A stretch of 4,268 nt of DNA, taken from the IMG/VR virus record IMGVR_UViG_2698536571_000008; one strand, written 5' to 3'. The notes beneath the pieces were generated by a model. The model saw nothing but the letters and a program-made list of their open reading frames with translations, was not told the DNA's origin and did not search any database. Each line of letters begins with the position of its first letter. Within the stretch, counting starts at the first letter, position 1. The position numbers and the translations under genes are program-made. This DNA comes from a virus. Taxonomy: Duplodnaviria; Heunggongvirae; Uroviricota; Caudoviricetes. Shown one piece after another: positions 1 through 4,268 of the stretch.

Positions 1-51
1 GGGGAATATCTCCCCGGCAGCCTTCAGGGAAAAATATCATCAGATGGCTGC

Positions 52-405
52 TTAAAAAAAGAACAAATGGTAGTGTCCGCTATTGCCAGTACACCTCAAT
101 TGCTCTGCGGCTTCGCTCAGAGCTGGCGTATGTTCCCGGCCTACTGATTCACACAGGTAATCAACGAAACCGGACACCAGTTTTCGTTCGCGAGGCGTGA
201 TCGCCCCACCGACCGGAGTCCAGTAATCGAAACCCAGTTGCAGGAGTTTGAAAAAACGCTTGTGGAATGCGTAGTTACACACACGCTTAAAGTCTGCGTG
301 TATCCACTCACCTATTTTGATTTGATGCAGAAAATCGCAACTCTCCGGCGTCGCCGGGAGAAGTAATCCGGAAGAGGTTTGTTTGACCAGTTGTATATGT
401 GCCAT
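52..405 (-). CDS. Hypothetical phage protein, about 117 aa from the ATG at 405. The ORF track's 131-aa version starts at a TTG at 447.
   Basis: Open frame 52..447 on the minus strand with TAA stop at 52-54. The internal ATG at 403-405 is preceded by GGAG with a 7-nt spacer (minus strand CCGGAGAAAGCCG-ATG), whereas the TTG at 445-447 has no Shine-Dalgarno. I do not recognise the family. Confidence 0.45.
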   Translation of the reverse strand: MAHIQLVKQTSSGLLLPATPESCDFLHQIKIGEWIHADFKRVCNYAFHKRFFKLLQLGFDYWTPVGGAITPRERKLVSGFVDYLCESVGREHTPALSEAAEQLRCTGNSGHYHLFFF

Positions 406-443
406 CGGCTTTCTCCGGTGGCACGGTGTTACACAGCAGGAGT

Positions 444-731
444 TCAATCCTGCTCAAGATTGTAGATGAGTTTATTCTTCAGCAAAAGCAGAAAACCAGC
501 CTTAAAACCAATCTCTTTCAAAACCCGTAATGATGTGACAAATTCGTCCTCACGCAAAATAAAACCGTCCGTCAGAAGTCCATTACAAAAATAAAATAAC
601 ACAGCACCGCTCTTCCTTTGTTGAGATTGCAAACATCTAATGCGGCAATGGCTGACAATCGCTCCATTCTCAACGCGCACAGCATAGAGGCCATTTTCAC
701 TAAAAATTTCACGCAATTCTTCGATTTTCAT
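444..731 (-). CDS. Hypothetical small phage protein (95 aa)
   Basis: ATG at 729-731 preceded by GGAAGGA with an 8-nt spacer; TGA stop at 444-446. It lies downstream of a predicted promoter and upstream of the ORF at 52-405. No family recognised. Confidence 0.5.
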   Translation of the reverse strand: MKIEELREIFSENGLYAVRVENGAIVSHCRIRCLQSQQRKSGAVLFYFCNGLLTDGFILREDEFVTSLRVLKEIGFKAGFLLLLKNKLIYNLEQD

Positions 732-980: not shown

Positions 981-1136
981 TTACTTCCTGGATTCGTAGT
1001 CTACGAAGACAGCGACCTCCGTCTGGCCGGTTCGGATTCGTACCTCACAGAGGTCTTTCCTCGTTACCAGTGCCGTCACTATGACGGTTAAACAGATGAC
1101 GATCAGGGCGATTAACATCGCCTTTTGCTGCTTCAT
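981..1136 (-). CDS. hok: Hok/Gef-family type I toxin (51 aa small membrane peptide)
   Basis: Translation MKQQKAMLIALIVICLTVIVTALVTRKDLCEVRIRTGQTEVAVFVDYESRK has the Hok signature: a single transmembrane helix, the TRKDLCEV motif and the conserved C-terminal region. It is very close to E. coli HokC/HokD as I remember them, with a different C-terminal tail. ATG at 1134-1136 is preceded by AGGAG with a 9-nt spacer; TAA stop at 981-983. Confidence 0.85.
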   Translation of the reverse strand: MKQQKAMLIALIVICLTVIVTALVTRKDLCEVRIRTGQTEVAVFVDYESRK

Positions 1137-1193
1137 AGCCTGCTTCTCCTTGCCTTTCGGCATGTAAGAGGCTAACCTACATGTGCAAAGCAT
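981..1193 (-). CDS. mok: Mok-like regulatory reading frame (70 aa): an in-frame N-terminal extension of hok
   Basis: ATG at 1191-1193 is preceded by GAGG with an 8-nt spacer. The N-terminal extension MLCTCRLASYMPKGKEKQA resembles the MokC extension (MLNTCR...KEKRAMKQHKAM) as I recall it, and is in the same frame as hok. Confidence 0.55.
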   Translation of the reverse strand: MLCTCRLASYMPKGKEKQAMKQQKAMLIALIVICLTVIVTALVTRKDLCEVRIRTGQTEVAVFVDYESRK

Positions 1194-1256
1194 GAAATTG
1201 GCCTCAGATTAATGTTAAGCGTCTTGCCGGACGCGTAATGTTAACTGGGGCTTTTC
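1185..1256 (+). ncRNA. sok: Putative Sok-like antisense RNA covering the mok translation-initiation region
   Basis: Inferred from hok/sok locus architecture. Plus-strand candidate promoter: -35 TTGCCT (1150-1155), 17-nt spacer, weak -10 TAACCT (1173-1178). Plus-strand stem 1201-1207 with 1245-1251 (one G-U pair) is followed by TTTT at 1252-1255. The transcript would be about 70 nt and complementary to the mok SD and start. Boundaries are approximate. Confidence 0.3.
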
Positions 1257-1312
1257 TCTATCTGCCTTTTGGTGTTCATGCCTGAAGCAGATAGCCTCAA
1301 GCACCCGCAGTC

Positions 1313-1363: not shown

Positions 1364-2050
1364 TCACTCCTTCTCTTCTTTACCGTAGTGGAGTTGACCA
1401 ATTTTGATAAGAGGGCGTCCCTGAGATTTGCGGTGTAGATTGGTATCGCGCAGAGAATACACACAGCCACAATATTCCTGCTGATAGAATTTTTCGCGCT
1501 TGCTGATTTCAATCATACGGGACGAGCCGCCCTGCTTGCGCCAGTTATAATCCCAGTACACCATGCCCGGATAATGCGCGACGGCTCGCCGCCCACAGTC
1601 GTTAACCTGCTGCATATTTTTCCAGCGTGAAATGCCCAGTGAACTGCTGATCACACTGAAACCATTTTCAGCGGCGTACAGCGCTGTCCGCTCAAAACGC
1701 ATGTCAAAACACATGGTGCAACGGATCCCTCGTTCGGGCTCCCATTCCATTCCTTTGGCTCGTTCAAACCAGTTGTCTGTGTCGTAATCAGCATCAATAA
1801 ACGGCACGCCGTGTTGTTCAGCAAAGCGAATATTCTCATCCTTACGAATTAAATACTCTTTCTGAGGATGAATGTTCGGGTTGTAGAAAAAGATGGTGTA
1901 GTCGATTCCCGAGGCCTGAAGCGCCTCCATCACCTCACCGGAACATGGAGCACAGCAAGAGTGCAGTAGTAGTTTGTTTGCCCCGTTTGGGAGCTCCAAT
2001 TTGGGCCGTTTGAAATCAGCAACTGTCATAAATATGTTTATTGGGGTCAT
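1364..2050 (-). CDS. queH: QueH-like epoxyqueuosine reductase homologue (DUF208 family). The 5' end is uncertain: candidate ATGs at 2050 and 2029, or the frame may extend into the N block.
   Basis: Translation carries the DUF208/QueH hallmarks [39 protein letters not shown] and [12 protein letters not shown]. Stop codon at 1364-1366. Neither ATG at 2050 or 2029 has a Shine-Dalgarno, and the frame stays open up to the N block. Confidence 0.75.
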
Positions 2051-2069
2051 AAAAATATCAAAGAGTGTA

Positions 2070-2329: not shown

Positions 2330-2752
2330 TCACAGTATCGCCTCCTGAAAATTACCCTGATAGAAAGCCAGTACACGCTGCATAGCTTCGCTCTTCCGGC
2401 ACTCGCGACAGATTATATTCAGGCGCCTGTCGTAGCGGCGTATTTCTCCGTCAGGTAATGACCAGATAAGGTCCGGATCAACAACAACCGGTTTCCTCAC
2501 CTTTACTCTCGAGAGTTTTTTGCGGGCGCTTTGCCAGTCCTTGCGAGCCTGTTCAGACGGGAATAAGCCGTAGCCAGAATTATATACATCACCACTTGCG
2601 ACCAGTTCTATGCATAAGCGACCGACAGACGCACGACTGATACCTGTTTCATCTGACAACTGCCGAATCGTGACCCGACCGTCCTGATGCACGAGTTCCA
2701 CAATTCGCGTCTTCAGTTCTTCCCGCTGTTCGGGAGTAAAAGGTTTCGCCAT
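2330..2752 (-). CDS. Small winged-helix/HTH DNA-binding protein of the prophage replication module (140 aa)
   Basis: ATG at 2750-2752 is preceded by AGGAGG; TGA stop at 2330-2332. The N-terminal segment RQLSDETGISRASVGRLCIELVASG looks like a helix-turn-helix. It lies 14 nt downstream of the DnaC-like gene. Exact family not recognised. Confidence 0.6.
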   Translation of the reverse strand: MAKPFTPEQREELKTRIVELVHQDGRVTIRQLSDETGISRASVGRLCIELVASGDVYNSGYGLFPSEQARKDWQSARKKLSRVKVRKPVVVDPDLIWSLPDGEIRRYDRRLNIICRECRKSEAMQRVLAFYQGNFQEAIL

Positions 2753-2766
2753 AAATCCTCCTGAAA

Positions 2767-3356
2767 CTACTTAACAACCCTCGAATGGCTAACATTCGGA
2801 CGCCAGCTCTCCCAGTTAAAATTCACCCAGCGCCCGCCGTTCATGACCATGCGATCCATCACCCGCTCGCCGAGCAATGTTTTCATCACCTCATAGTTCA
2901 GGTTTGTCAGCATCCCCACGCTGCGCATCGACGCTGTCCGGCGATCAACAATCTGGTGCAGCACCACCTGCTCGTTTTTCGTCTCGCGCTGAATGCCAAT
3001 TTCATCAAGAACCAGCAGATCCACTTCGCACAGCTCCCGCAAAAATTTTTCGCCTGACTGCCCGTCGTCATAGCTGGCGTGCAGGGCGCTCATAACATCA
3101 GCCACGGTAACCACAATCACTGTCTGACCGTCTTTCAGCAGGCGATTCCCGATAGCTGCCGCTAAGTGATTCTTCCCGGTACCAGGTTTTCCGCTGAACG
3201 CAAAATTTGTACACCCGGTCATCAGTTCATCGGCGATGGATTTCGCCTGGCTTAACGCGTATCGCTGGCCGTCGTTCTGCACCTGGTAATTCGCAAACGA
3301 GCATTTACGGTGCAACGGCTGGATGCCTGAGCGATTCAGAATTTTTTCCACCCGCA
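2767..3356 (-). CDS. DnaC-like helicase loader (AAA+ ATPase, phage P-like/IstB-like), partial: the N-terminal ~55 codons lie in the N block
   Basis: Walker A FSGKPGTGKNHLAAAIG and Walker B LLVLDEIG. Strong resemblance to E. coli DnaC: NRSGIQPLHRKCSFANYQV matches DnaC FNRSGIRPLHQNCSFENYRV, and GERVMDRMVMNGGRWVNFNWESWR is also shared. Stop codon at 2767-2769. The GTG the ORF track uses as a start (3349-3351) aligns to an internal DnaC position. Confidence 0.85.
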
Positions 3357-3560
3357 NNNNNNNNNNNNNNNNNNNNNNNNNNNNNNNNNNNNNNNNNNNN
3401 NNNNNNNNNNNNNNNNNNNNNNNNNNNNNNNNNNNNNNNNNNNNNNNNNNNNNNNNNNNNNNNNNNNNNNNNNNNNNNNNNNNNNNNNNNNNNNNNNNNN
3501 NNNNNNNNNNNNNNNNNNNNNNNNNNNNNNNNNNNNNNNNNNNNNNNNNNNNNNNNNNNN
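3357..3560. other. Run of 204 N (masked or unsequenced), hiding the 3' end of the replication-initiator gene and the 5' end of the DnaC-like gene
   Basis: Directly visible. Confidence 1.
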
Positions 3561-3818
3561 CGCGAACAGGCCCTGGTATTCATTGGCGATGCTGTGTCGA
3601 ATCACCTGCTCAGGTGTAAAACCCTGCTGACGGAATTTTTCCAGTTCCCGTATCGCCCCGTTAGCGCCCTGCTCCGTTCGAATCGGTTTTCGCAATGCCT
3701 GTCTGAACCGGACCCACTCATGCCAGAGTGTTTCCGGCAACCAATCGGGCAGCTCAATAGCCTCCGGCTCGAATTTTTTAGACGCTCGTTTTTGGCGAGG
3801 GGGAGATCAGTATTTAGA

Positions 3819-3863
3819 TCTTCCTCTTCCTCTTCCTCTTCCTCTTCCTCTTCCTCTTCCTCT
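3819..3863. repeat. Perfect hexanucleotide tandem repeat (TCTTCC)7.5, which on the minus strand is (GAGGAA)n encoding Glu14 in the linker frame
   Basis: Seven complete TCTTCC units plus TCT, counted base by base. The plus-strand reading (poly-Ser in ORF 3207..3878) is the antisense artefact. Confidence 0.95.
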
Positions 3864-3966
3864 GGTAACGCTTTTTGATCCGTTTGTGTAACGCTGGCAG
3901 CGTTACCTTTTCGTTTCAGTTCGCGTATTTTTGTTACTCGCTCGTTTGTAACCGCCCGTTTTTTTT
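3864..3966. other. Iteron-like repeat cluster plus T-rich tract inside the replication-initiator linker region; candidate phage replication origin
   Basis: 19-bp palindrome GTAACGCTG-G-CAGCGTTAC (3888-3906). Further GTAAC(G/C)C or GTTAC-containing copies at 3865-3871, 3933-3941 and 3948-3955. Recurring CGTTTGT(G)TAAC at 3881-3892 and 3942-3952. T8 tract at 3959-3966. Confidence 0.3.
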
Positions 3967-4171
3967 AGAGCTTTTTCCGTTATGACGTTCAAAGTTAGGT
4001 AGAGAAAGCCCTCCGTCATTTTCGACCAGCCATCCAACCTGAATTAACGCATCAGCAAAACCAGACATAAAAGTGATGCGATCTATTGCACTTTTTGTAA
4101 CGCCGCGAGCGTTACAATCTGCATTACCGTCTATCATTTGTTGATCCGCCCATGCCCAGAAGCGAATAACC

Positions 4172-4268
4172 TGAGGTAGCCTGAGTTTAACGGACACTCC
4201 TTCCTGAAATAGAATGGCATCAGAAGGAGCTAATAATGAGCAGAAAAACCCAACGTTACTCTAAAGAG
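4172..4268 (+). mobile_element. Left end of an IS3-family insertion sequence (IS600-like), partial; continues beyond the window
   Basis: Terminal sequence TGAGGTAGCCTGAGTTTAACGGACAC starts with TG and has a GGACAC box about 20 nt in, as in IS3-family left inverted repeats. The orfA start lies 64 nt inside the end. The N-terminal peptide MSRKTQRYSKE fits the IS3-family OrfA pattern (basic residues, then Y/F-S-x-E-F-K). Confidence 0.5.
4236..4268 (+). CDS. IS3-family transposase OrfA, first 11 codons only
   Basis: ATG at 4236 is preceded by AAGGAG (4223-4228) with a 7-nt spacer. Translation is MSRKTQRYSKE and the frame is open to the window edge. Confidence 0.45.
   Translation, partial: MSRKTQRYSKE

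Follow-up and report, generated by a model that had tools for sequence, protein, structure and literature searches.

QueA makes epoxyqueuosine at position 34 (oQ34) of tRNA-Asp, tRNA-Asn, tRNA-His, and tRNA-Tyr, and Escherichia coli supplies this oQ-tRNA substrate through its tgt/queA pathway. Reduction of oQ to queuosine (Q) relies in this species on imported vitamin B12, which E. coli does not synthesize de novo; BtuB, the B12 receptor, also serves as a phage and colicin receptor. Q affects the decoding of NAU and NAC codons and, in Shigella, virulence. QueH, an enzyme of the oQ-to-Q step, has been characterized as cobalamin-independent, with a [4Fe-4S] cluster and an adjacent iron site. Here we describe a queH gene in a 4,268-bp window (the whole stretch of DNA analyzed) from IMG/VR virus record IMGVR_UViG_2698536571_000008. 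We read it, with a probability of roughly 60%, as a functional QueH that was captured by a phage, has its own promoter, and acts as a B12-independent backup for QueG.

QueG (YjeS) and QueH catalyze the same reaction, oQ34 to Q34. One study describes QueG as working with cobalamin and two [4Fe-4S] clusters (PMC4646009), and two others describe the reduction by QueH as proceeding without cobalamin (PMC11906303, PMC13443448). Enteric bacteria in glucose-salts medium without B12 contain oQ34 instead of Q34, according to a review that cites Frey 1988 (PMC6850298). No homologs of QueA, QueG, or QueH turned up in the viruses that Hutinet et al. 2019 examined (PMC6884629), and a phage queH qualifies the published statement that viruses carry none of these Q-specific genes. 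Our literature search returned no description of QueH as a phage-borne gene, many of the matches being false (the author name "Quehenberger," DUF208x families). The enzyme family, the chemistry, and the RefSeq gene name were already known; the enzyme itself is ordinary and correctly named by RefSeq. Its residence on a phage appears to be new to the searchable literature, a point of modest interest.

The gene is an uninterrupted open reading frame (ORF) on the minus strand, which in its longest form runs from an ATG at 2050 to a TGA at 1364–1366 and encodes 228 amino acids. The second ATG, at 2029, is the conserved start and gives a protein of 221 amino acids, the same as RefSeq model WP_012421537.1. 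This start is backed by alignment to chromosomal orthologs, in which the upstream ATG is missing; the upstream ATG also lies only about 5–8 nucleotides (nt) from the predicted transcription start. In the closest complete genome, E. coli FDAARGOS_944 (locus L001), which is 99.9% identical to the window across the shared parts, the DNA of the RefSeq model is 100% identical to the window queH.

The first-pass annotation had called the protein a QueH homolog with intact CCAPC and CGC cysteine motifs, and both parts of that call held. The Pfam profile PF02677 (QueH/DUF208) matches over its full length (positions 1–174 of 175; 220.6 bits against a cut-off of 23.5, E = 1.9e-65), and Thermotoga maritima QueH (TmQueH; PDB 7LC5) matches at E = 5e-22 with about 31% identity. 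All seven ligand positions are present, in CCAPC (C32, C33, C36), CxxC (C111, C114), and CGC (C194, C196), and align in that order to C9, C10, D13, C87, C90, C169, and C171 of TmQueH. The CC, CxxC, and CGC cysteines are common to the two proteins, whereas Asp13 of TmQueH (CCAPD) stands where the window protein has Cys36 (CCAPC). Ligand roles were taken from the alignment to PDB sequences and from the names of PDB mutant entries; the PDB holds the TmQueH mutants C9S and D13N, the depositors having targeted two of the aligned ligand positions.

A HMMER scan, run exhaustively over 1.84 billion cluster representatives, yielded 4,755 relatives, and ligand conservation was assessed in 64 sequences, namely the window protein and the 63 domain-covering proteins among the best 150 matches (35–74% identity). 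Six of the cysteine positions are invariant in this alignment; at position 36, 61 sequences out of the 64 have Cys and the other three Asp. The normal form of the motif is thus CCAPC, and the crystallized TmQueH, with its Asp, is the exception. Some distant QueH-domain representatives (P0125, P0128, P0135, and P0138) are 719–1,398 amino acids long with the QueH domain at the C-terminus; these are possibly fusions or gene-calling run-ons.

An AlphaFold2 model of the window protein (predicted local distance difference test score, pLDDT, 73; predicted template modeling score 0.74) had TmQueH as all five of its best PDB matches, with target-normalized template modeling scores of 0.74–0.77 and E values of 4e-10 to 1e-8; structures 7LC5, 7LC7, and 9DEU share the fold of the model. 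The next matches, PP-loop/adenine-nucleotide-alpha-hydrolase enzymes at E of about 3e-5, are four orders weaker. No model of NCBIfam release 20 matches the protein, so the family assignment rests on Pfam, the PDB, and the fold, and the RefSeq/PGAP name QueH must stem from an evidence source other than NCBIfam. Taken together, the sequence and the model fold indicate that the ORF encodes an intact, canonical QueH, mainstream rather than diverged, and the window protein is very probably an active oQ reductase.

The gene is carried by phages, as the first-pass annotation had stated. In L001, queH lies within a complete lambdoid/Rac-type prophage adjoining ybhA/modC, whose content includes integrase, excisionase, RecE/Gam, CI/Cro, YdaT, YdaU, YdaV, DUF977, QueH, HokD, NinB-like and Q-like proteins, four tRNA genes, and lysis and head genes. 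The complete 45-kb genome of phage HannyBb (source "bird poop") encodes a 96.5% identical protein at the same position, annotated as hypothetical. In IMG/VR, 189 viral contigs encode a QueH relative, and 80 of the 189 were compared and proved 99–100% identical. Among 5,426 complete E. coli genomes, 995 (18%) contain queH, nearly always right behind the DUF977 gene of a prophage, with a median of one copy per carrier; 1,014 of 1,017 copies are chromosomal, 985 of the 995 carriers hold at least 80% of the gene, and RefSeq gives the name "epoxyqueuosine reductase QueH" to all of the E. coli matches listed.

The features of the window, in order of coordinates, are as follows.

1–98, plus strand: right end of insertion sequence IS600 (IS3 family), which truncates a DUF1367/NinB-like gene
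99–447, minus strand: truncated DUF1367/NinB-like gene
444–731, minus strand: PHROG 340 ORF
981–1306, minus strand: hok/mok/sok type I toxin-antitoxin locus (Pfam HOK_GEF, PF01848, E = 9.8e-23; annotated as hokD in L001)
1364–2029, minus strand: queH coding sequence (CDS), 221 amino acids from ATG 2029, with stop TGA at 1364–1366
2064–2069, minus strand: −10 hexamer TACACT of a putative extended −10 promoter, abutting a run of N
2070–2263, no strand: run of N (mask or gap) of 194 nt between the DUF977 gene and queH
2330–2752, minus strand: DUF977 winged helix-turn-helix protein (Pfam PF06163, E = 1.1e-33; PHROG 142, "Ren-like exclusion protein")
2767–3351, minus strand: DnaC/YdaV-like helicase-loader ATPase (NCBIfam PRK12377, 403.6 bits, cut-off 389; Pfam IstB_IS21)
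3561–4171, minus strand: fragment of a YdaU/O-like replication initiator gene, its 5′ end cut by IS600; collinear with the L001 CDS at 15704–16492 up to window position 4172
4172–4268, plus strand: left end of IS600, with the orfA start at 4237, interrupting the YdaU/O-like gene upstream of the replication module

Every gene of the window is on the minus strand, and queH sits where it had been placed at first, between the replication genes (the DnaC/YdaV-like gene and the DUF977 gene) and hok/sok. The IS600 ends at the two edges have the same orientation, with the NinB-like gene cut by one copy and the YdaU/O-like gene by the other; judged from these ends, the window most likely represents an entire draft contig, consisting of a prophage fragment with an IS600 copy on either side. 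An IS600-bounded prophage fragment is a pattern typical of Shigella-like genomes. The N-run at 2070–2263 starts 20 nt upstream of the longest ORF and makes most of the upstream sequence unreadable in the window; the closest complete relatives have 476 nt in its place, comprising a 118-amino-acid phrog_1621 ORF and the 5′ edge of the queH cassette. The PHROG 1621 ORF has CxxC-type motifs. A second N-run (3357–3560), in which the 5′ part of the DnaC/YdaV-like gene is lost, measures 204 nt against 253 nt in those relatives, and both runs appear to be gaps or masks whose lengths are not preserved. The YdaU/O-like gene contains a perfect (GAAGAG)7.5 repeat at 3819–3863 (TCTTCC on the plus strand) that encodes a poly-Glu tract and could be slippage-prone. 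On the other side of queH, a promoter-like TTGATT-18-TAGAAT lies directly downstream of the gene (L001 13244–13215), and the hok/mok/sok locus, which is complete and includes an Rfam sok match (RF01794, 1131–1306, 117 bits), begins 58 nt past the queH stop.

The same position in other lambdoid prophages, a check that the first-pass annotation had proposed, was found repeatedly. The DUF977 gene precedes queH in HannyBb, in O157:H7, ST131, and wild-bird strains of E. coli, and in a 175-kb E. coli plasmid record with the same phage gene block. The gene after queH varies, being hokD, an NgoMIV-type restriction-modification pair, or a DUF1971 gene, and Doc toxin occurs in the block of other strains; in E. 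coli O157:H7 (Z1768; L084 1306–3316) an NgoMIV-family restriction endonuclease and a cytosine methyltransferase replace hok downstream of queH. The site behind DUF977 is a cargo hot spot, open to defense genes too. When flanking genes were called and clustered at 82 loci, the DUF977-queH-hok phage context was found only in the Escherichia and Shigella copies.

Outside this context, queH is widespread on chromosomes. The first-pass annotation held that enterobacteria normally use QueG and not QueH, which is correct for the E. coli core genome, with queG in 5,426 of 5,426 complete genomes, and does not extend to the Enterobacterales, where chromosomal QueH of 79–92% identity to the window protein occurs in Enterobacter, Kluyvera, Erwinia, Pantoea, Serratia, Pectobacterium, Rahnella, Proteus, Providencia, and Photorhabdus. 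Identity is 92% to chromosomal Enterobacter QueH and 79–86% to the proteins of Erwinia, Serratia, Pantoea, and Proteus. The neighborhoods of these copies are chromosomal and conserved, as listed here.

Erwinia and Pantoea: dcm and vsr upstream of queH, HD-domain gene downstream
Serratia: yciI-queH-tonB
Pectobacterium: dusC-queH-sapA-like
Rahnella: AI-2E transporter-queH-DUF969
Enterobacter, Kluyvera, Scandinavium, and Kosakonia: assorted non-phage sites

Since queG is universal in E. coli, each queH-positive strain has both QueG and QueH. The QueH and QueG match lists have species names in common, such as Pantoea endophytica and Pantoea sp. NPDC088449, and S. aureus has been reported to have the two enzymes (PMC13443448); on this evidence, we take the carriage of both to be a natural state.

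Plasmids carry the gene as well. PLSDB holds 302 plasmid records with queH, among them about 100 Klebsiella plasmids (92.8% identical) and plasmids of Bacillus, Ligilactobacillus, and Acinetobacter. On Klebsiella pneumoniae IncF/IncR plasmids (L167 and L168, about 3600–6300), the flanks of queH consist of TonB and TolA fragments and an IS3 element, and the segment looks like a captured chromosomal tonB-queH region. In a tblastn search of phage collections, most matches outside E. coli fell on fecal contigs that are short and unannotated ("Bacteriophage sp.") or on "Acinetobacter phage MD-2021a" records of very large size, and were rejected as unreliable phage evidence. In two of the latter records (CAKLQH020000001.1 and CAKLQF020000001.1, 328–379 kb), a QueH of 78% identity bears the annotation "putative prophage protein"; from their size, these records do not seem to be simple phage genomes.

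Phage-resident queH alleles with a common capture junction differ at synonymous sites by a dS of 0.15–0.18, with only 2–5 nonsynonymous changes. The ratio of nonsynonymous to synonymous divergence (dN/dS) is 0.054 for the window against HannyBb, 0.025 against an E. albertii prophage, and 0.025 against Enterobacter. These ratios indicate that strong purifying selection keeps queH functional during phage residence, and the window ORF is intact even though IS600 has cut genes on both sides of the prophage remnant. A cobalamin-independent isozyme is thus mobile on Escherichia and Shigella prophages and Klebsiella IncF plasmids, under strong purifying selection, which suggests that the last step of Q synthesis matters enough for mobile insurance.

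These results bear on two alternative explanations. In one, queH would be selectively neutral cargo, a redundant second oQ reductase hitch-hiking in a lambdoid recombination hot spot. QueG is present in every complete E. coli genome, 82% of these genomes have no queH, the site behind DUF977 accepts other cargoes (hokD, the NgoMIV-type pair, Doc, and DUF1971), and to our knowledge no phenotype separates oQ from Q. Neutral drift is nevertheless hard to reconcile with dN/dS values of 0.025–0.054 accumulated over a dS of 0.15–0.18 by alleles with one capture junction, with at least 80% of the gene in nearly all carriers (985 of 995), with an intact ORF inside an IS-eroded remnant, or with independent mobilization on plasmids, and we regard this explanation as improbable.

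In the other, raised by the first-pass annotation as a diverged function, the phage QueH would act on a different substrate, such as a 7-deazaguanine base in phage DNA, or in anti-defense. Phages do use queuosine-pathway enzymes in DNA modification (PMC6884629), and PHROG 3217, to which the window protein belongs, is labeled "unknown function." Against this, its identity to a chromosomal QueH is 92%, its ligands are the majority set, and the purifying selection on it is strong (dN/dS 0.03–0.05); the annotation of the 28-kb prophage stretch of L001 and of 32 kb of HannyBb lists no DpdA/TGT-like gene and no preQ0 genes (FolE, QueD, QueE, QueC), and PADLOC gave no defense-system match for the protein. 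A diverged substrate is very improbable and appears to be the weakest of the rivals.

We aligned four phage backbones whose DNA upstream of queH is dissimilar (L001/L004, HannyBb, and the E. albertii prophage). Homology between the backbones starts about 65–70 nt before the queH ATG and stops directly after the TGA (the cassette corresponds to L001 13266–14000, or window 1364 to about 2100), and the sharing of these ends across backbones points to one capture event. Within the approximately 70 nt upstream, the sole block common to the chromosomal Enterobacter, Scandinavium, and Kluyvera copies is TGCTACACT or TGCTACAAT, the flanks being otherwise unrelated. The motif TGCTACA(C/A)T stands 43–44 nt before the ATG in the Escherichia/Shigella prophage, HannyBb, and chromosomal copies, and 42 and 40 nt before it in two further loci. 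By phylogenetic footprinting, TGCTACACT is a putative extended −10 element of textbook form (TGn plus a TAnAAT-like hexamer). At this spacing, genera further removed show different sigma-70-like pairs, for instance GTGACA...TACACT (Erwinia) and TTGAAG...TATAGT (Serratia). The prophage queH was therefore, as part of our overall reading, probably taken, promoter included, from the chromosome of a related Enterobacteriaceae species, and the cassette looks like a self-transcribed "moron."

The window, L001, and three chromosomal loci (L005, L030, and L050) were searched with Rfam, which reported neither a riboswitch nor any other RNA element at queH. Control of the B12-independent isozyme by a B12 riboswitch was considered and rejected; there is no such Rfam element, and the leader is only about 35 nt.

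The first-pass annotation had proposed that queH is co-transcribed with the replication module. In its strict form, queH would be a delayed-early gene of the kind found in a nin region, transcribed from the early-right promoter in lytic growth only and keeping host Q-tRNA matured for phage translation. Part of the proposal stands: queH shares its strand with cro, ydaT, ydaU, ydaV, and the DUF977 gene, upstream of the Q-like antiterminator and the lysis genes and always directly behind the replication module, and no terminator-like site separates it from DUF977. The absence of a terminator between the replication genes and queH makes read-through from the early-right promoter on induction possible. 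The other part fares less well against the conserved promoter motif 43 nt upstream, which appears to be inherited from the chromosomal copies, and against the break of the upstream operon in the window, where IS600 cuts the YdaU/O-like gene and queH is still intact. The gene also occurs on Klebsiella IncF plasmids, which have no phage program, and none of the prophage tRNA genes (Gly, Thr, Arg, Ile) specifies a Q substrate. (In L001 these four tRNA genes, at 10367–10677, lie between the Q-like gene and the lysis cassette, and no queuosine-modified tRNA is among them.) We consider an exclusively lytic role unlikely. With the upstream initiator gene broken by IS600 in the window, a promoter of queH itself is the likelier source of any expression there, and we lean, on the strength of the conserved motif, toward expression of queH from that promoter in lysogens. 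The two modes of expression are not mutually exclusive.

Several observations weigh against the reading of a self-transcribed backup enzyme. The confidence of the AlphaFold2 model is only moderate. In the window, the TG of the extended −10 element (about 2071–2072) and all bases upstream of it are masked by the N-run. A simple sigma-70 consensus scan did not call the extended −10 promoter, and the −35 is weak; the consensus promoter and terminator scan gave nothing useful around queH and found fewer sites than in shuffled controls. No Shine-Dalgarno sequence precedes ATG 2050 or ATG 2029. No terminator-like hairpin was found on the minus strand upstream of queH or between queH and hok, so the gene is not a fully insulated unit, and its GC content (0.49, against 0.51–0.53 for DUF977, DnaC, and the hok region) does not set it apart in composition. 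We know of no physiological difference between oQ-tRNA and Q-tRNA, and a B12-free route may therefore give little benefit; the gut, moreover, usually contains corrinoids.

With these reservations, the explanation we prefer is the following. QueH would be a cobalamin-independent iron-sulfur reductase that converts oQ to Q at position 34 of the tRNAs for Asp, Asn, His, and Tyr. A single capture by a Rac/lambda-type Escherichia phage would have moved queH out of the chromosome of a related member of the Enterobacteriaceae in a cassette of about 740 bp, which includes about 70 nt of upstream DNA with the native extended −10 promoter. Its insertion point would have been the replication module's variable cargo site, next after the DUF977 gene, and there queH would be expected to be transcribed on its own in lysogens, possibly with read-through from the early-right operon in lytic growth. 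Prophage QueH would then let lysogens complete Q when B12 is unavailable, backing up the B12-dependent QueG. That such a route gives a measurable benefit is doubtful on present evidence, and the larger idea, that the phage uses a self-transcribed queH as a lysogenic-conversion factor uncoupling Q completion from vitamin B12, is offered tentatively. If true, about one in five E. coli strains, and Shigella with IS-eroded prophage remnants, could obtain Q-tRNA matured to completion where B12 is scarce or once BtuB is lost. It would also mean that a phage-borne auxiliary gene acts on the host epitranscriptome and provides a measurable fitness read-out for the long-unexplained oQ-to-Q step. Lysogens with and without queH, compared with and without B12, form a simple natural experiment.

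Compared with the systems described so far, the window QueH has features of several. Its basic C-terminal tail of about 25 amino acids, conserved in Enterobacterales, is unlike TmQueH, and its gene is on a prophage whereas TmQueH is at a chromosomal locus. The chromosomal QueH proteins of Enterobacter hormaechei, Scandinavium, Kluyvera, and Erwinia are closer (85–92% identity) and agree with it in start codon and in the extended −10 motif, which lies 40–44 nt upstream; those copies lie between ordinary genes (LysR-budABC, dcm-vsr/HD), whereas the window copy lies between DUF977 and hok. QueG performs the same reaction from an unrelated fold and family (PF08331/PF13484) and needs cobalamin along with its two clusters; queG is a core gene, in contrast to queH, an accessory one (995 of 5,426 genomes). 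Phage 7-deazaguanine DNA-modification modules (DpdA with FolE, QueD, QueE, and QueC) likewise place queuosine-pathway enzymes on phages; they use early steps of the pathway and a DNA transglycosylase, whereas here the last, tRNA-specific step is present alone, with no DpdA annotated. Unlike the morons of lambdoid phages, queH has neither its own terminator nor a GC anomaly, and the cargo is a tRNA-modification enzyme rather than a surface, toxin, or exclusion function. Like them, it occupies, as one gene, a variable-cargo site between conserved modules of the phage, has a promoter-like element of its own, and probably serves the lysogen rather than the making of virions.

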